NCBI GenBank assembly: GCA_041660065.1
Contig: JBAZXC010000002.1
Location: 170,620-234,619 of the forward strand
DNA: 64,000 nucleotides
Reading direction: 5' to 3'
Origin: Parcubacteria group bacterium
GTDB lineage: Bacteria > Patescibacteriota > Minisyncoccia > Moranbacterales > GCA-2747515
Shown: positions 5,779 through 62,077 of the stretch, piece after piece
Layout: every line of letters starts with the position of its first letter
Position numbering within the stretch: position 1 is the first letter of the stretch
Notes under the pieces: model-generated
The model's database searches: none
Told to the model about the DNA's origin: nothing
What the model saw: the letters and a program-made list of their open reading frames with translations, nothing else
Position numbers and translations under genes: made by a program

Positions 5779-7245
5779 CTACAAAATCAACAAGAAAATT
5801 GCCGCAATGATCAAACACGTCACAAAAACGATCGATGCCCATCCGCATACCCGTACCCACCACGGATGCGTTTCTCTCCCCATGATGTGTTTATCATCCC
5901 CGACGATCATGATCACCACCAAAAGAGGCAAAGCGATCACACCATTGATGAATGCCGCATAATACAATGCCATGATCGGATTGATATGAAAAAAATTCAA
6001 AGAAAGCCCAAATAAAATTGAAATGACGATGATCATATAAAAACCTTTTGCATGAGAAAATTTCTCTTCCAGACCCTCATGCCATTTCATGACCTCCGCA
6101 AGCGCATACGCACCGGACCCGGCCAAAATCGGGACGGCAAGCATACCGGTACAGATCAAACCGATAGAAAAAAGAAGAAATGCATGTTCTCCCGCCAATG
6201 GGCGCAGTGCCATCGCCGCTTGATCTGCAGACTCGATATTATATATCCCATTCTGATGTAAGACTTGTGCTGTTGTGATAATGATGAAGAAGAAAACACT
6301 GTTTGCCAAAAACATCCCCGTTCCGACATCCGTACGCATTTTCCGTATTTTTGTCGTCAGTCCATGTTTTTCTTTTTTGAGAGGAATGATGGCACTTCTT
6401 TTTTCCATACGATTTTCCTCCACTTCTTCTGACGTTTGCCAAAAAAAGAGATATGGCGTGATGCTTGTGCCAAAAACAGCGATCATCGCAAAAACATATG
6501 ATTCATCAGGTAAAAATTGCGGCACAAAGGCAAAATGAAATATTTCGCGCCACGCAGGATGGATAATAAAACCTGTCACAACATACGCCAAAACTGAAAT
6601 AGTCAACCATTTCAACACGCGCACATAAATGCGATACCCGATGAAGATCTCACACACGATTGACACTGCCGCAAAAAGAAGCGCCGCGATATAAAAATTT
6701 ATATGCGTAAGCATATTCAATGCAGACGCCATTGCGCCAAGATCAGCACCAATATTCACAACATTTGCAATAATGAGTAGCACAACGATCCCGCCGACAA
6801 TACGTTTTTTATAATGACGCTGTAAAACACCGGCCAAACCATGATTTGTCACGATACCAATGCGTGCACATACTTCCTGAATCGCCATCATCATCGGCAA
6901 AAGCCACACGGCCATCCAGAGAATACTCAAACCGAACTTCGCACCAACAGAAGAATACGTACCGATACCTGACGGGTCATCATCCGACGCACCCGTAATG
7001 AGACCCGGTCCAAGTGCACGAAAAAAAAGATGCATTTTTTTCCAAGGGTTTTTTGCCAACTCCATGACGCGAATGACTTCTGTCTCCGCGATCACGACCG
7101 TACCATCAATCGTCTTGACAGCCCTAACCTCGCCCCACACGACCAATTTGCGCGCAACAATAAGAGGAATACCCGCCATATGTCGGAATTCCGACATGGA
7201 GAAAAATTTTTCATTATGATTATTGTCGTTTTGTATTGTTTCCAT
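5779..7245 (-). CDS. mntH: Nramp-family divalent metal (Mn2+/Fe2+) transporter with ~70-aa N-terminal extension
   Basis: GPGLITGASDDDPSGIGTYS motif (Nramp DPGN-like), about 11 TM helices, MLAVPILAGSGAYA. Confidence 0.75.
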   Translation of the reverse strand: METIQNDNNHNEKFFSMSEFRHMAGIPLIVARKLVVWGEVRAVKTIDGTVVIAETEVIRVMELAKNPWKKMHLFFRALGPGLITGASDDDPSGIGTYSSVGAKFGLSILWMAVWLLPMMMAIQEVCARIGIVTNHGLAGVLQRHYKKRIVGGIVVLLIIANVVNIGADLGAMASALNMLTHINFYIAALLFAAVSIVCEIFIGYRIYVRVLKWLTISVLAYVVTGFIIHPAWREIFHFAFVPQFLPDESYVFAMIAVFGTSITPYLFFWQTSEEVEENRMEKRSAIIPLKKEKHGLTTKIRKMRTDVGTGMFLANSVFFFIIITTAQVLHQNGIYNIESADQAAMALRPLAGEHAFLLFSIGLICTGMLAVPILAGSGAYALAEVMKWHEGLEEKFSHAKGFYMIIVISILFGLSLNFFHINPIMALYYAAFINGVIALPLLVVIMIVGDDKHIMGRETHPWWVRVCGWASIVFVTCLIIAAIFLLIL

Positions 7246-7321
7246 TTTTTCTCAAAAAAATATCTATCATCATTGTGTCACACTTCACGCGTTTTGATAA
7301 GAACAAAAAACCCTACCTCTT

Positions 7322-8104
7322 TTAAACACTGTATGGCGCATGATCGAAAATTTCATTGTCAATCGCGTTCTTCACCGCATTATATTCCGCGATATCTTTT
7401 ATCGCCCATGTGAGCAGTGGTTTATTTTTTTTGTGTGCAACAGACACGATCCAACACCGTGGCAACAATGATGCCCGACAAACAAAGAAATCCGGCATAT
7501 GCGCACTCACGCTCCACAAAATATACAAACCAATCTTTCGCACCCAGCCGCCACAAAAACTCTTATTCTTATAGTCAGTGAAGTTTTGTCCGCATGAGAT
7601 CTGCGGAAAATATTTTTTTGCTTTTTTGACCAAAAGCGGATCAAATGACGACAACGCGTAATTCCCATGATATTTTTTTAAAATATCGCGCAGTGTAGCA
7701 AGAAAAAATTCTCGATCATGTCTTTTGTTTTTCATCTCAATAAGAAGAGGCACGCGCCCACGGACAAGAGCCAGTACATCATCCAGCGTTGGAATATGCT
7801 CCTGCGATGAGCCTAGTATACACGCGGAAATCTCTTTTTTTGTCATGTCAGACAATACTGTGTCCACATTGCACATACGTTTTAGCGACCAATCATGAAA
7901 GACGATCATTGCGCCATCTGCCGACATCTGCACATCCAATTCAATCGGATAACTGGCATCAACAGCTTTTTGACATGCTCCCAATGAATTTTCCGGCGCA
8001 TCGTGACCCCATGCGCCCCGATGTGCGATCGGCTGCTGTTGTATCCACTGTTCTGTTTTCATAATAATCCACTGTATGCATTGCCCAAGACGCCCATTGC
8101 CCAT
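7322..8104 (-). CDS. glycerophosphodiester phosphodiesterase (GDPD family)
   Basis: HRGAWGHDAPENSLGA...ELDVQMSADGAMIVFHD GDPD catalytic motifs. Confidence 0.8.
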   Translation of the reverse strand: MGNGRLGQCIQWIIMKTEQWIQQQPIAHRGAWGHDAPENSLGACQKAVDASYPIELDVQMSADGAMIVFHDWSLKRMCNVDTVLSDMTKKEISACILGSSQEHIPTLDDVLALVRGRVPLLIEMKNKRHDREFFLATLRDILKKYHGNYALSSFDPLLVKKAKKYFPQISCGQNFTDYKNKSFCGGWVRKIGLYILWSVSAHMPDFFVCRASLLPRCWIVSVAHKKNKPLLTWAIKDIAEYNAVKNAIDNEIFDHAPYSV

Positions 8105-56376: not shown

Positions 56377-57765
56377 CTACGAAAACAGTTCAACCAAAAG
56401 TCGTACAGGAGAACCCTTGGCGCCTTTGGCAAGTTGTTCATCAAAAATAGCTGTCATGGTCGGTGCCATATCGATATGCACCCACTTGTCTTTGTATTCT
56501 TTGGCAAAATGCTTGAGGAAAATCGCACCCGTAATGGCTCCGCCAATCCCGCCTTGTCCCTTGGTGCGAATATTGGAAATATCCCCATGCGTCCCCGCAA
56601 TCTCTGCGCTATAATCATCCCATAGTGGCATACGCCACACCGCATCACCTGTTTTTTCTCCTGCCTCAATCACTTTTTGCGCCAATGCATCATTATCGGT
56701 GAACACCGCACTCGCACGCTCGCCCAGCGCAACCACCGCCGCACCTGTAAGCGTCGCCACATCGATCACCTGTTTTGGATTGAAGCTCTTGGCATATGTG
56801 AGTGCGTCTGCGAGAATCAGCCGTCCCTCCGCATCCGTGTGCCCGATCTCCACATGCGTACCGTCCATCATTGTGATGATGTCTCCCGGACGCATGCTGG
56901 TCCCGCTTGGCATATTTTCTACTGCCGGGATCAATACGACAATGTGCTCTTCACTGTTCAATCGATCTGCCGCAAAGATCGCCGCCACAACAGCCGCGGC
57001 ACCGCTCATATCCATCATCATTTCCAATCCATACGGATGTGGCTTGGTATCGATGCCACCACTGTCATACGTCACGCCCTTACCCACAAGCACCGTCGGT
57101 TTTTTTGTCCCCGTGCCAAAATATTCCAAAATGATAAACCGCGATTGACATGTACTTCCCTGTCCCACTGCGAGCACGCCATTCATTTTTTTGCGACGCA
57201 TTTGTTTCTCATCCAACACACGCATTTTGATCTTGGTGCCTTTGATCGCCTTGCGGATGATCCCTGCGAGATGCACCGGCGTCATATCACCGCCCGGCGT
57301 ATTGGCGAGGTCACGACAAAAGTTTACTTGTGACGCGATCGTCACACCTCTGCGAAAATCTTTGTGTACGCATGTCTTGTCTTTTTTTTGCGCCACAACG
57401 ATCACCTCATCGATATCATGCCATCCTTCTTCCGGTTTGGCCTTGTATTTGCGGAACTCATAATCCGCCATATACACCGCCTCTGCAAAAATCTGACACA
57501 AGTCGTCACCGATGCCCTCAAACACTATCAGGTCCTTCCATGTAATTTCCAATCGCTCGATCTTGTATTTCTTGGCCTCTTGGATGATCGTGCGCACAAG
57601 CACAATCCATTTGCGCCGCGTCATCGCATCCGCTTTTGGCACTTTGATCTCCAACACATCGCCCTTTGCACCCGCCACAAAACGATTTCCCACGATCTTT
57701 TCCTGCAATGACACGCGCGTATATTTTTTGCGTGTAGTATTTTTTTCAACGATCGTGATCTTCAT
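56377..57765 (-). CDS. pepA: leucyl aminopeptidase (M17)
   Basis: NTPGGDMTP, VGKGVTYDSGGID, MKxDMxGAA M17 signatures. Confidence 0.85.
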   Translation of the reverse strand: MKITIVEKNTTRKKYTRVSLQEKIVGNRFVAGAKGDVLEIKVPKADAMTRRKWIVLVRTIIQEAKKYKIERLEITWKDLIVFEGIGDDLCQIFAEAVYMADYEFRKYKAKPEEGWHDIDEVIVVAQKKDKTCVHKDFRRGVTIASQVNFCRDLANTPGGDMTPVHLAGIIRKAIKGTKIKMRVLDEKQMRRKKMNGVLAVGQGSTCQSRFIILEYFGTGTKKPTVLVGKGVTYDSGGIDTKPHPYGLEMMMDMSGAAAVVAAIFAADRLNSEEHIVVLIPAVENMPSGTSMRPGDIITMMDGTHVEIGHTDAEGRLILADALTYAKSFNPKQVIDVATLTGAAVVALGERASAVFTDNDALAQKVIEAGEKTGDAVWRMPLWDDYSAEIAGTHGDISNIRTKGQGGIGGAITGAIFLKHFAKEYKDKWVHIDMAPTMTAIFDEQLAKGAKGSPVRLLVELFS

Positions 57766-57829
57766 ATGTGCAATTGGTTAAAAGATTATTTACAGCCTGT
57801 CTCTATTAAAGGTTGTTTCTTGCACTTCG

Positions 57830-58858
57830 TCAAATATGCAATAGCGCATGATCCAATTTTAATGCAATTTTTGTTTTCAATCGATGTGTATTTCCATGGC
57901 TCAACAACCCTTCATATGAACGCCATCTTTTCAGTGTCGCATTTTTCCTCATCCGTCGCACCATCCTCTTTTTCGTCTTCGTCCGCAAGATCCGATGATC
58001 AGAAAAGATGATCATCCCGAGAAAATCCACACCGGATGAGAGGGTTTTGATAAAAACCTTGTCCGGATGCATTTCCAGTCGTAATTCTTCCCACAAAAAG
58101 TTCTCTATGGCTGGAATATCATTCTCCAACTGTTTTTTGTTTGTGGCTAAGAATACAAAATCATCCGCGTAACGAATATAGTATTTTGCTTTCATTGTAT
58201 GTTTTGCAAACTGATCGAATTTGTTCATATAAATATTCACAAATAATTGTGAAGTCAGGTTGCCCAGCGGAAGTCCGATTTTCCTCTCTTTCCTGTGGTA
58301 CGGTTGAAATGACGAGAAACTCTCTATGATGTTTTCAAGAAGTGTGATGATATTTTTGTCCGGAATATATTCGGAGAGAATTTTTAATAAAATATCATGG
58401 TCGATATTTGCAAAGAATTTTTTGATGTCGCATTTCAAAACCCAACATGTTTTTGTGTTATTTTGACTGACTTTATGAAAATATTTTTTAAATCTATTGA
58501 TTGCTTTATGGGTTCCTTTATCATTTCTGCATGAATACGAATCAGCGATAAATGTTTTGTCAAAAAACGGATAGAGTTTTCTATAGATTGCATGATGCAA
58601 AAGCCGATCACGCACGATAGCTTTGTGGATGTTTCTTGGTTTGGGATCGTTGATTTTGAACGCTTGATAACCGCCGTGTTTATAGGTAAAATTACAGAGA
58701 TCATTGTGAAGCAAAAAGATGTGATCCATGAGTCTCAAGGAAAATTCCTGCACGTCCTTCCTGTTTCTCTTTCCTTTTTCAAATTCTTTCCATGCTTCCA
58801 ACAAGTTTTCTACACTGATAATATCATCATACGTATGAATCAATTGAATTTTCATCAT
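57830..58858 (-). CDS. diversity-generating retroelement reverse transcriptase
   Basis: RT motifs incl. YADD (IRYADDFVFL) and DGR-type motif 4 GLPLGNLTSQLFVNIYM (SQ instead of SP); 342 aa, no maturase/endonuclease domain; adjacent Avd, TR and VR. Confidence 0.8.
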   Translation of the reverse strand: MMKIQLIHTYDDIISVENLLEAWKEFEKGKRNRKDVQEFSLRLMDHIFLLHNDLCNFTYKHGGYQAFKINDPKPRNIHKAIVRDRLLHHAIYRKLYPFFDKTFIADSYSCRNDKGTHKAINRFKKYFHKVSQNNTKTCWVLKCDIKKFFANIDHDILLKILSEYIPDKNIITLLENIIESFSSFQPYHRKERKIGLPLGNLTSQLFVNIYMNKFDQFAKHTMKAKYYIRYADDFVFLATNKKQLENDIPAIENFLWEELRLEMHPDKVFIKTLSSGVDFLGMIIFSDHRILRTKTKKRMVRRMRKNATLKRWRSYEGLLSHGNTHRLKTKIALKLDHALLHI

Positions 58859-58886
58859 AGTCAGACTTTTAAAGCCCCCCAGAGGA

Positions 58887-59240
58887 GTGCCTGCTGTAAT
58901 TACAAAGGAAAAAGAAACGTATAGTTATTGGTTGACATTACATCGCAATTTTCCCAAAACGGAACGCTACGGGCTCGGACGCAGGATCGACCAAATATTT
59001 CTCGAAGTTCTGGAATCAAGTTTTACTGCCACATATTTGCCACCAGAACAAAAAGTGCTACTTCTGGGGAAAATAATTTCACGCCTTGATATACTCAAAT
59101 TTTATTCTCAACTTGCATGGGAAAACAAACTCATCCCCAATAATCATTATATAGATCTTTCACAGAGACTAGAAGAGATCGGTCGCATGCTCGGTGGATG
59201 GAGAAAAGGACTTTTGGAAAAGAAAACTCCTGCAAAGTAA
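58887..59240 (+). CDS. avd: Avd (accessory variability determinant, four-helix-bundle protein); GTG start; opposite strand to RT/TR/target
   Basis: Architecture and C-terminal EIGRMLGGWRKG match Avd/TIGR02436 family (compare Bordetella phage Avd ..EVGRILGSWI..). Confidence 0.7.
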   Translation: MPAVITKEKETYSYWLTLHRNFPKTERYGLGRRIDQIFLEVLESSFTATYLPPEQKVLLLGKIISRLDILKFYSQLAWENKLIPNNHYIDLSQRLEEIGRMLGGWRKGLLEKKTPAK

Positions 59241-59264
59241 GCAGGAGAAAAAACAATAAGTTTC

Positions 59265-59374
59265 GGAGCCACCAAACGATGTTGATTCTCGGCGTTCCAG
59301 ACGTTCGAGTTCTCAAGCCGGTTCACATTCGCCTTGAGCAAGTCGTCCGAGTTGAAGTTCACGTTGGCAACGAA
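59265..59374 (-). repeat. DGR template repeat (TR), 110 bp
   Basis: Aligns with VR at offset 433; 12 mismatches, all at TR adenines on the minus (sense) strand. Confidence 0.85.
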
Positions 59375-59684
59375 ATATGCGACGAGCCATCCACACCATC
59401 ATCCTTTGAATACTCTCAGGATTGTATCTTATGCGGGACATAGAAGTCTGCCGGCTCATCGCACCAACTGGCTGTTTTTTTGTTTCAAAAAACATATCCG
59501 CTATTTTGCAAGACATATCCGGCAAAATCCTCGAGTACATTTTTTGACAACCTTGATCTGAGGCCTTAACCGCAAATTTTTCCAAGATTATAACTCTATT
59601 ATACAAAAAAATCCCTCTGATTCAAAGTGCCAAAGCACCAAAGAATCAAAGGGACTAAAAGAAAAGGAACTAGATGACTTAGTT

Positions 59685-60455
59685 TCAAGCCAGATGCGGA
59701 GCCACCAAACGAAGTCGAAACTCGGCGTACCAGACGTTCGAGTGCTCAAGCCGGCGCACATACGCCCTGAGCAAGTCGTCCGAGTTGAAGTCCACGTAGG
59801 CAACGAAGAACTCACCCGTATCTTCATTTTCAAGTAGAAAAAATGTGCCGTAACCATCTCTCTTGAGTTTATCGCGATACTTCACCGCGAATTCTTCAAC
59901 GTGACCTTGTCCGACACAAAGCTTGCGCAGATCTTCCCGATATTTTTCAACGAACTCCCCAAAACTTTGAAATTCATCAGGAGATGCGCCAAACAAAAAA
60001 CCAAAAAGTTGACCAAATGTGCCATCCTCAATCATTTCGCGAACGCGAACCGTGATTTTGTTTTTTCTGGAACACTTTTTACTAAGTCCCCAATTTACAA
60101 AATCGCGATCTATGCCAGCCTTAAAAGTATCTTTGGCATTAGAAAGCATCTTGGTGCCATCATCCGGTCCGAGCTCTATGATTTCATCCTGATAAAGATC
60201 GCGGAGATAGACTTTTGGACTACTAGAGGGTTTTACTACCTCAGCCACATTATCAACTGGCACGATCTTATGTGTGCCGTTGAGAACTCCGCGAAATCCT
60301 GCGTGATTCCTATACTGACCGAACTTTGTAACCTCACTTGATGTCCAACCTTCCGCTTCCAGCTTTTCCATCAGTTGATGCGTTTGACCTTCGGAATAAG
60401 AAGACATGTCTTCCTCCTTTTGGCACATGTGCCATCGTAAATATTTTGCTGCCAA
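59685..60455 (-). CDS. DGR target protein with C-terminal variable C-type-lectin-like region (..DFNSDDLLRAYVRRLEHSNVWYAEFRLRLVAP)
   Basis: VR at 3' end; TR-encoded version has AAY (Asn) codons at variable sites; ends in FRLxLV-like motif common in DGR VRs. Confidence 0.75.
   Translation of the reverse strand: MAAKYLRWHMCQKEEDMSSYSEGQTHQLMEKLEAEGWTSSEVTKFGQYRNHAGFRGVLNGTHKIVPVDNVAEVVKPSSSPKVYLRDLYQDEIIELGPDDGTKMLSNAKDTFKAGIDRDFVNWGLSKKCSRKNKITVRVREMIEDGTFGQLFGFLFGASPDEFQSFGEFVEKYREDLRKLCVGQGHVEEFAVKYRDKLKRDGYGTFFLLENEDTGEFFVAYVDFNSDDLLRAYVRRLEHSNVWYAEFRLRLVAPHLA
59698..59807 (-). repeat. DGR variable repeat (VR) occupying the last ~36 codons of target gene
   Basis: Identical to TR except at positions where TR sense strand has A; shared GC-rich 3' end TCGTTTGGTGGCTCC (IMH-like). 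Confidence 0.85.
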
Positions 60456-60676
60456 CTTGGCCGATATGGTTTCGCCACAGCCAAAAATTGCCTTAGATAA
60501 GCCTTTTTTGGCTGTGGTGAATGAAAAGTTGTCAAGTTACTACGATTTTACGTTGTACGCCTAAATCGTCATTTTGTCAATATTTTTGTAAAAATCTCCC
60601 CTAGCCCCTCTTTACAAAAGAGGGGTACAAACTCTCCCTTTTTTAAAAGGGAGATGTCCGTAGGACAGAGGGATTT

Positions 60677-62077
60677 TTACAGATTTTTGCTAAGAAATGT
60701 TTGCAATTCTTCCACGGCGACACTTGTCTGTTCCATCGTGTCGCGATCGCGCACCGTTACTATACCCTTTTCCAGTGTGTCAAAATCGATCGTCACACAG
60801 TACGGTGTACCGATCTCATCTTGACGACGATAACGCTTGCCCACATTGCCATTGTCATCAAATTCACACATATATTGCATCTTGAGCATATCATGGATCT
60901 CACGTGCTTTTGCCACCAATTCCGGTTTGTTTTTGAGAAGCGGAAATACTGCCACCTTGATCGGCGCGAGAACCTTTGGCAATTTGAGTACTGTGCGCGT
61001 CTTACCCTCGCCCAGATCTTCCACAGTAAATGCCTTGTCCAGAAACATCAGGAATAGTCGCCCCAATCCCACAGACGTCTCCATGATATGCGGGATGAAT
61101 TTTTCTTTGGTCTTTTCATCCACATAATCCAATGTCTTGCCGGAAAATTTGCTATGTTGTGAGAGATCCCAATCACCACGCGCATGAATGCCTTCCACCT
61201 CTTTGAATCCACCAAGAGATCGGAAATTATATTCAATGTCATATGCTTGGGAAGCATAGTGCGCAAGCTTCTCATGTTTGTACCAACGAATATCATCCAC
61301 ACCGATCCCGAGATCGAGATACCACTGCCATCGCACAGCTTTCCACATATCATATTTTTCTTCCATCATGGATGGATGGAGGAAATATTGCATTTCCATT
61401 TGTTCAAATTCTCGTGTACGGAAAACGAATTGCCGCGCCACGATCTCATTGCGAAACGCCTTACCCACCTGCGCGATACCAAACGGCAATTTGACACGCG
61501 TAGAATCCACCGTGTTTTTATATTCAAGGTAAATACCCCCGCATGTCTCCGGACGCAAATACACGACGTTTTCCTCACTGAGCACATCCGTCGGTGAGCC
61601 GAGATTGGATTTGACCATGAGTGAAAATCGCTTGGCCTGTGTGACATCCGTCGAACCGCAATTGATACACTTCAGCTTTCCCTTTTCTCGTAATTTGTCC
61701 AATTCCGCATTGATAAACTCAATTGGCATCTTGTCCGCCACAATATCAAACGCTTCCAAGACATGATCGGCACGCATACGTGCTTTGCATTTACGACAAT
61801 CGATCTGCGGATCATCAAAGCTGTCCACATGTCCCGACGCAACCCATGTCGTCGGATGCATAAAGATCGCACTGTCCAGTCCCACCACATCATCACGGTA
61901 TTGCACCATATGTCGCCACCATGAATCGCGAATGTTATTTTTGAGCAGTGTCCCATAATGTCCATAATCATAGATCGCACCCAATCCGCCATAGATCTCC
62001 GACGATGGAAATACAAACCCACGCCTCTTGGTCAATGACACCAACTCGTCCATGATCGTCTTTTTATTATCTGCCAT
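60677..62077 (-). CDS. glyQS: glycyl-tRNA synthetase (alpha2 type)
   Basis: Class II aaRS motifs, full-length GlyRS homology (SSEIYGGLGAIYDYGHYG). Confidence 0.9.
   Translation of the reverse strand: MADNKKTIMDELVSLTKRRGFVFPSSEIYGGLGAIYDYGHYGTLLKNNIRDSWWRHMVQYRDDVVGLDSAIFMHPTTWVASGHVDSFDDPQIDCRKCKARMRADHVLEAFDIVADKMPIEFINAELDKLREKGKLKCINCGSTDVTQAKRFSLMVKSNLGSPTDVLSEENVVYLRPETCGGIYLEYKNTVDSTRVKLPFGIAQVGKAFRNEIVARQFVFRTREFEQMEMQYFLHPSMMEEKYDMWKAVRWQWYLDLGIGVDDIRWYKHEKLAHYASQAYDIEYNFRSLGGFKEVEGIHARGDWDLSQHSKFSGKTLDYVDEKTKEKFIPHIMETSVGLGRLFLMFLDKAFTVEDLGEGKTRTVLKLPKVLAPIKVAVFPLLKNKPELVAKAREIHDMLKMQYMCEFDDNGNVGKRYRRQDEIGTPYCVTIDFDTLEKGIVTVRDRDTMEQTSVAVEELQTFLSKNL

Follow-up and report, generated by a model that had tools for sequence, protein, structure and literature searches.

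A probable B3-type diversity-generating retroelement in a Parcubacteria chromosome and the conserved RNA structure around its template repeat

Results

A diversity-generating retroelement of the candidate-phyla type

We analyzed a 64,000-nt stretch of a Parcubacteria group bacterium genome (assembly GCA_041660065.1, contig JBAZXC010000002.1, positions 170,620 to 234,619; hereafter the window, whose numbering is used throughout). The window very probably carries an intact chromosomal diversity-generating retroelement (DGR) of the Patescibacteria (candidate phyla radiation, CPR) clade with architecture B3, i.e., a target gene with a variable repeat (VR), a template repeat (TR), a reversed avd gene and a reverse transcriptase (RT) gene. 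This cassette layout has already been published as B3; the part worth following up is the RNA that accompanies it, namely a conserved leader upstream of the TR, a bracket duplex between this leader and the TR 3′ flank, and a hairpin directly after the TR. An earlier sequence-only reading had called the DGR complete. When we re-read the locus over 57500-61000, listing the open reading frames (ORFs), searching for repeats, and comparing TR and VR without gaps at an offset of 433, all of its parts were recovered: the target with a 3′ VR, the TR, avd, and the RT.

The TR (59265..59374, minus strand) and the VR (59698..59807, minus strand) are both 110 nt long and differ at exactly 12 positions, which in TR coordinates are 59280, 59283, 59286, 59287, 59296, 59311, 59322, 59323, 59329, 59334, 59359, and 59365. 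All 12 are T in the TR on the plus strand and hence A on the minus (sense) strand, and no mismatch falls elsewhere; at these sites the VR carries A, C or G on the plus strand. The repeat pair and the 12 differences that the sequence-only reading had listed are thereby reproduced exactly. Altogether, the TR contains 27 T on the plus strand, corresponding to 27 sense adenines, 12 of which are altered in the VR, and the chance of all 12 mismatches falling on T is (27/110)^12 = 4.8e-8. A repeat finder independently returned a single long direct repeat of 116 nt (59259-59374 / 59692-59807), and this extension adds two further mismatches, both at TR adenines (14/14). The VR has thus received its sequence from the TR through copying that specifically mutagenized adenines, and the complete lack of mismatches at other bases indicates that the copying was recent. 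A second VR-like copy was not found in the 64 kb on either strand, even when adenine positions were left free to vary.

The VR codes for residues 201-237 of the target protein and ends 10 nt before the stop codon. In the target frame, 10 codons differ between TR and VR. The altered codons are seven of the nine AAC/AAT codons that the TR contains, together with AAG, CAA, and CAT, which bears out the AAY codons noted earlier at the variable sites. The locus thus has the form expected of a DGR, in which the VR forms the 3′ end of a coding target gene and TR adenines occupy positions 1 and 2 of AAY codons. Beyond the final adenine difference, TR and VR have a 15-nt stretch in common (CGTTTGGTGGCTCCG), after which their flanks diverge; this stretch may be a candidate for the functionally defined elements for initiation of mutagenic homing (IMH/IMH*), which are G+C-rich identical stretches at the 3′ ends of VR and TR.

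To place the cassette among its relatives, we scanned 80 loci from species-representative genomes, whose RTs are 60-77% identical to the one in the window, for RT, Avd, and adenine-biased repeats. avd was encoded on the opposite strand directly upstream of the RT gene in 76 of 76 loci with enough upstream DNA, and the order VR, TR, reversed avd, RT was common to all 76 Patescibacteria loci in which the position of avd was visible. A TR/VR pair with at least 80% of its mismatches at TR adenines was detected in 59 of the 76. In these 59 loci, the TR lies just past the 3′ end of avd (median gap 12.5 nt), and the VR is found upstream of the TR at a median distance of 340 nt. The same arrangement, TR-(avd)-RT, has been described as architecture B3 and makes up 90% of the CPR set of DGRs (Wu et al., 2018, NAR 46:11, PMC5758913). 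Likewise, in the window avd is reversed and is the sole accessory gene (TR 59374-59265, minus; avd 58887-59240, plus; RT 58858-57830, minus). The inverted avd, which had been regarded as unusual, is therefore the norm of the clade and stands out only against the Bordetella prototype. The locus adds one example to a DGR clade with thousands of members, and membership in this clade explains its inverted avd. The useful result is a comparative one: the inverted layout is accompanied by a strongly covarying RNA around the TR.

Reverse transcriptase and avd

The RT gene (57830..58858, minus strand) encodes a protein of 342 aa that matches RVT_1 (E 3e-27). It lies on the same strand as the TR and contains the motifs LGNLTSQ and YADD, in agreement with the sequence-only reading, which had pointed to GNLTSQ and YADD. 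RTs of the DGR clade are marked by (I/L/V)GxxxSQ where group II enzymes have QGxxxSP, and by a catalytic YxDD. Among solved structures, its closest relative is 8ub7_A (‘Reverse transcriptase’, 328 aa, E 5.7e-37, aligned over residues 10-305), which we take to be the Bordetella phage DGR RT (bRT) of the Handa et al. cryo-EM series. In the same search of solved structures, the best group II intron RT reached E 8.7e-20 and the characterized, named retron RT chains (Eco8, Ec83, Ec78, St85 family) E 7e-8 or weaker. Two PDB chains labeled ‘retron-type reverse transcriptase’, 5hhl and 5hhj, scored E 2e-19 and 4e-18, far weaker than 8ub7.

The Rfam scan of 57500-60800 revealed no group II intron or retron RNA family at E<=1. 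The element does not belong to the retrons, as judged from the RT scores, the lack of a retron RNA family, and the presence of a VR, nor to the group II introns, given that same Rfam result, a TIGR04416 score of 151.7 bits against a cut-off of 300, and an RT of only 342 aa; group II intron RTs have a maturase (X) domain and often an En domain as well. More than 8000 RT homologues were found at E<=1e-30, the named ones coming from Parcubacteria, Moranbacteria, and similar groups, and an adenine-specific TR/VR pair is present in each of the 59 nearest relatives in which a repeat was detectable. By its motif, its search scores and the TR/VR pairs of its relatives, rather than by phylogeny, the protein is assigned to the DGR-type enzymes.

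avd, the accessory variability determinant gene (58887..59240, plus strand), lies between TR and RT on the opposite strand, as had been read before, and its product matches Pfam bAvd PF22296 above the cut-off of 40 (52.8 bits, E 6.2e-14). The start codon is uncertain. The GTG proposed earlier is insecure, with GAGGA abutting it without any spacing, and in 30 of 78 related loci the region around the conserved N-terminus of Avd offers no in-frame ATG, GTG or TTG. This N-terminus is preceded by a conserved C-run that reads as Pro-Pro-Pro (avd 5′ ends of L001-L084; window 58859-58900). Either the start of avd may be non-canonical, or the C/G-run may be a signal shared by both genes in the divergent avd-RT gap, which spans about 28 nt in the window and a median of 44 nt between alignment ends in the relatives. 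The public annotation of the closest relative (L001) calls a 238-aa ORF (6572-7288, minus) antisense to VR, leader, and TR and leaves avd (7203-7532, minus) uncalled; it is an example of how such cassettes are mis-annotated.

A conserved structured leader upstream of the TR

The stretch of about 220-225 nt between the TR and a promoter-like site upstream is conserved among loci with unrelated TRs and targets. In the window, this non-coding leader of the TR RNA occupies 59375..59591 on the minus strand. Its structure was obtained with RNAalifold from a plain MAFFT alignment of 60 loci (A3) that was not fitted to structure. The predicted fold consists of two 5′ stem-loops, SL1 (59577-59556) and SL2 (59536-59496), and of a 12-bp helix, P3 (59464-59453 / 59388-59377), which closes a junction with the two hairpins P4 (59450-59435) and P5 (59424-59397, loop GAGAGUAUUCAA) and whose 3′ strand ends a few nucleotides before the TR. 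Between SL2 and P3 lie a short strand, here called bracket strand A (59479-59472), that pairs with a strand A′ in the TR 3′ flank, an A at 59469 (A138 of the alignment) that is invariant in 60 of 60 loci, and an invariant UUGG (59467-59464). All of these elements are on the minus strand.

In the 60 loci, 94.2% of the leader cells are paired, compared to 38-53% when the partners are slid. Compensatory changes occur in 40 of the 48 pairs, and the covariation score is 0.727 as against 0.10-0.19 in the slid controls; none of 500 shuffles matched the observed values. The window sequence itself forms 44 of the 48 pairs, and folding of the window RNA as a single sequence (-114 kcal/mol, z -2.8) recovered the same helices. 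A 97-aa ORF (59313-59606, minus) runs over the leader but is not a gene, as a stop-free frame over the leader is found in only 10 of the 60 loci. The Rfam scan of 57500-60800 assigned no family and gave a single chance snoRNA match (E 0.87). We found no description of the leader RNA in the searchable literature, including no mention in Wu et al. (2018; PMC5758913), and an earlier description may exist.

Two further candidates were dropped. A search of IMG/VR with the P5 loop motif as a pattern returned eight loci, none with an RT or Avd homologue, which we regard as chance matches and not as evidence for phage-borne copies. A pseudoknot between GAGAGU of the P5 loop and a consensus ACUCUC in the TR 3′ flank was discarded because the flank in the window has no complement.

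Upstream of the leader, the promoter-like site (59598..59625, minus strand) reads TTGAAT, 16 nt, TATAAT and matches the consensus at 10 of 12 positions. In 57 loci, hexamers resembling a -10 box cluster about 137 nt before the invariant UUGG, where a window of 11 nt holds 37 of them, against at most 2 per position elsewhere.

A bracket duplex and a hairpin at the 3′ end of the TR

The TR 3′ flank (59249..59264, minus strand; alignment A2) contains a conserved CG(A/C)AAC motif, here CCGAAAC, and the bracket strand A′ (59256-59249), which lies between this motif and the hairpin that follows. Over 8 columns in the 60 loci, the duplex of leader strand A with A′ is 90.6% paired, whereas other registers reach at most 78% (median 53%). 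The pair types are mixed within columns, e.g., UA 27 / AU 20 in one and GC 32 / AU 11 / GU 9 in another.

The hairpin after the TR (59217..59247, minus strand) consists of CTCCTGC-TTACTTT-GCAGGAG followed by TTTTCTTTTC. It is terminator-like for a TR-sense transcript and holds the avd stop codon in its loop. RNAalifold predicted no pairs in the MAFFT alignment of the TR-avd junction (A2) because the stems were aligned in shifting registers; we therefore tested for enrichment against random windows instead. A hairpin with a T-run was present at the junction on the TR-sense strand in 50 of 60 loci, compared to 9.6% of random windows from the same loci, and on the avd-sense strand in 0 of 60. The T-run is conserved as TTTT(G/C)TTTT. 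The stop codon of avd has no fixed place relative to the hairpin: between loci it shifts by about 40 nt, from ahead of the hairpin through its interior to beyond it, which shows that the hairpin is no side effect of avd coding. The leader, the bracket duplex, and the terminator-like hairpin are robustly supported as real RNA features, and it is their role that the model presented below proposes hypothetically.

Target gene and neighborhood

The target gene (59685..60407, minus strand) encodes the variable protein. Its longest ORF extends to a TTG at 60455, and the sequence-only reading had accordingly described a 256-aa target with a C-terminal VR. The C-terminal position of the VR holds, but the length of 256 aa corresponds to this longest frame. 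AAGGAGG lies six bases upstream of an ATG at 60407, and the protein starting there is identical to a 240-aa hypothetical protein of a Parcubacteria metagenome-assembled genome (MAG) in the NCBI gene model. On these two grounds, a 240-aa protein starting at ATG 60407 is likely the correct one. An upstream ATG, which gene callers use in several homologues to give ‘MCQKEED...’, was rejected because the codons concerned are the AAGGAGG ribosome-binding site of ATG 60407.

As had been noted before, the target has no recognizable domain: it matched nothing in Pfam or NCBIfam, including neither FGE-sulfatase nor DUF1566 in Pfam. Its 26 homologues are all unnamed, and when aligned they combine a conserved body with a hypervariable C-terminal region of 35 residues, within which W226 and P237 are nearly fixed. 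The family may belong to the ‘ungrouped’ or the ‘UVR’ class of Wu et al. (2018). The AlphaFold model of the target has a predicted local distance difference test score (pLDDT) of 86 overall and above 90 for residues 70-240. A Foldseek search of this model against PDB and BFVD returned nothing below E 0.1, and its structural scores against variable proteins with a C-type-lectin fold are below the usual confidence level.

A 12-bp hairpin, TCCCTTTGATTC / GAATCAGAGGGA, followed by a run of seven T, can be read directly from the sequence 3′ of the target gene (59605..59655, minus strand) and is probably the terminator of this gene. The terminator scan did not score it, as its loop is longer than 8 nt; a related hairpin is visible in two relatives (L007 and L011). 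Just 5′ of the target gene lies an imperfect inverted repeat of 34 nt (60454-60538, 74% complementary, 17-nt spacer). The genes neighboring the cassette encode leucyl aminopeptidase and glycyl-tRNA synthetase, indicating that the setting is chromosomal and not phage.

Target homologues also occur on their own. The genes at L003:6001-6714 and L004:6001-6705 encode proteins 70% and 58% identical to the target, with no RT, avd or TR within 6 kb, and one of them belongs to a cluster of hydrogenase-maturation (hyp) genes. Both may be targeted remotely by a DGR at another site of their genome, or they may be orphaned. A second group of small proteins (P0017-P0026) has an N-terminal helical segment (MSSYSEGQTHQLMEKLEAEGFTP...) in common with the targets and a different C-terminus, which is tryptophan-rich and hypervariable (FFWGTIYR..W.W..W). 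This pattern suggests domain shuffling among DGR target families.

Discussion

A model for the TR RNA

We tentatively propose that the candidate-phyla DGRs use a circularly permuted DGR RNA, with its scaffold in the upstream leader, encoded by a free-standing gene that runs from promoter to terminator and converges on avd. The TR would then be co-transcribed with neither avd nor the RT, and would instead be the central part of an independent non-coding RNA about 375 nt long (approximately 59591 to 59217, minus strand). This RNA would comprise, behind its own promoter, the structured 5′ leader of about 220 nt, the TR, a short 3′ flank, and the terminator-like hairpin, which would end the transcript at the end of the converging avd. 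Expression of avd and RT would start in the short gap that separates them and proceed in opposite directions.

In the folded RNA, the leader strand ending in the invariant A 59469 would pair with the TR 3′ flank and be followed by UUGG and then by P3, the other strand of which would abut the 5′ end of the TR. The leader could thereby serve both for binding of RT and Avd and as a scaffold for cis-priming, with A 59469 as the putative priming adenosine and P3 as the putative stop helix. The resulting cDNA would replace the VR and so vary the C-terminal surface of the target, a small binding protein that may be lectin-like, at about 10-16 codons.

To our knowledge, the DGRs of Patescibacteria are the most abundant group of DGRs and yet experimentally untouched. 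For these elements, the covarying RNA provides a testable model of how reverse transcription is primed and delimited, and the leader is a signature by which DGR finders could locate the TR within this clade. If the permuted scaffold is true, elements that position the template could come from either side of the TR, and a compact RNA with two small proteins would be a candidate for engineered targeted mutagenesis.

Alternative explanations

That the repeats are an ordinary duplication which diverged at random beside an unrelated retron or group II intron RT is refuted by the TR/VR comparison, the 59 related loci, and the RT structure search. Such a duplication would account for the presence of a repeat and an RT and for nothing beyond that, whereas 12 of 12 mismatches fall on one base (probability 4.8e-8), the same signature recurs in 59 related loci, no group II intron or retron RNA family matched, and the RT is far closer to 8ub7 than to RTs of either kind; we give this explanation practically no credence. 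A DGR relic, in which the repeats record past homing of an element that is now inactive, is a better-founded alternative but still improbable. Activity is not observable from a single assembled sequence, and the targets at L003 and L004 show that cassettes and targets do separate. On the other hand, the RT is of full length with an intact YADD and aligns with 8ub7 over residues 10-305, avd is intact, all RNA elements conserved in the relatives are present with 44 of 48 pairs formed, and the lack of non-adenine mismatches over 110-116 nt points to recent homing. The closest relative, L001, speaks to the same question. Its target is 76%, its TR 78%, and its gene body 80% identical to those of the window, and in both elements the VR equals its own TR at all non-adenine positions (12/12 and 24/24 differences at adenines in the window and L001, respectively), while identity between the two VRs is only 64%. 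This match of each VR to its own TR, despite the divergence of the TRs, indicates that homing continued after the lineages split.

Two other explanations leave the DGR untouched and concern the RNA. TR and RT could be parts of one transcript running antisense through avd, for which RT-PCR had been suggested earlier, and the post-TR hairpin would then be a stem-loop bound by Avd or RT. The avd-RT gap of about 28 nt leaves little room for a separate RT promoter, and stem-loops are predicted downstream of the TR in many DGRs (Handa et al.). We nevertheless consider a single transcript doubtful, since the conserved hairpin directly after the TR is terminator-like and occurs with its T-run on the TR-sense strand in 50 of 60 loci but never on the avd-sense strand; moreover, TR and RT need not be co-transcribed (Wu et al., 2018, PMC5758913). 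The leader could also be a regulatory RNA that senses a ligand or a protein and controls transcription of the TR, rather than a scaffold for reverse transcription. Its site 5′ of the TR and behind a promoter resembles that of riboswitch-like leaders, and it contains invariant unpaired nucleotides. However, a helix of the leader abuts the TR, and a leader strand forms a duplex with the 3′ flank on the far side of the TR, as a template-positioning scaffold requires. The leader also strictly co-occurs with RT and avd in 60 of 60 loci, so that we regard a regulatory role as unlikely.

Several observations weigh against the interpretation of the locus as an active DGR with a permuted RNA. Present-day activity is inferred from the sequence, and the promoter and terminator assigned to the TR RNA are consensus matches. 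The equivalence of the leader elements with the primer and stop elements of Bordetella is one of topology and not of sequence homology. The bracket duplex is A/U-rich, and over 12 columns slid controls reach 50-62% pairing compared to 79% observed. NCBIfam DivGenRetAVD scores the Avd protein at 71.3 bits (E 7e-20), below its cut-off of 80, and a phmmer search of Avd against the solved Avd structures gave no match. Finally, the post-TR hairpin could be an Avd-binding stem-loop instead of, or besides, a terminator. Handa et al. (bioRxiv 10.1101/2023.10.23.563531) predicted Avd-binding stem-loops just downstream of the TR in 207 DGRs, in a survey limited to the 40 nt before and the 100 nt after the TR. 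Such a survey window would miss the leader and would score the post-TR hairpin as an Avd-binding stem-loop.

Comparison with known systems

The closest likeness is to the B3 DGRs of candidate phyla (CPR/DPANN), with which the element agrees in host group (Parcubacteria MAG), RT clade, gene order, and reversed avd, as well as in having a small target with a C-terminal VR and no recognizable sequence domain. At the level of the cassette, we see no difference, and the locus is a member of this group. The target shows no sequence similarity to Treponema denticola TvpA or to other DGR variable proteins with a C-type-lectin fold.

Like the prototype DGR of Bordetella phage BPP-1 (mtd-avd-TR-brt), the element has a homologous RT, an Avd-family protein, adenine-specific transfer from TR to VR, and a target gene with its VR at the 3′ end. 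It differs in that avd is reversed and lies between TR and RT, the target is not Mtd-like, and the element is chromosomal and not phage-borne. The structured RNA of Bordetella comprises a 140-nt spacer downstream of the TR together with 20 nt of avd upstream. Within this spacer, a short strand, whose last nucleotide is the priming adenosine, base-pairs with the TR 3′ end. One strand of a ‘stop’ duplex begins two nucleotides further on and has its partner immediately upstream of the TR, and additional parts of the spacer form structure that binds RT and Avd (Handa et al., bioRxiv 10.1101/2023.10.23.563531). The RNA modeled here is similar in that a duplex at the 3′ end of the template ends in an adenosine and another duplex borders the 5′ end of the template. 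In contrast to Bordetella, its structured part is the leader, which precedes the TR and measures about 220 nt, with no more than about 45 nt following the TR, and the pairing strand would reach the TR from the 5′ side.

The msr-msd RNA of retrons is a structured non-coding RNA with its own promoter, in which the template is bracketed by a long-range duplex and the structure recognized by the RT lies 5′ of the template. All four features are likewise found in our model of the TR RNA. A parallel between DGRs and retrons in priming from a 2′-OH has been drawn by Handa et al. (bioRxiv 10.1101/2023.10.23.563531). Unlike in retrons, the RT of the element described here belongs to a different clade, Avd would be required, and the cDNA would rewrite a target gene, which retron cDNA does not.

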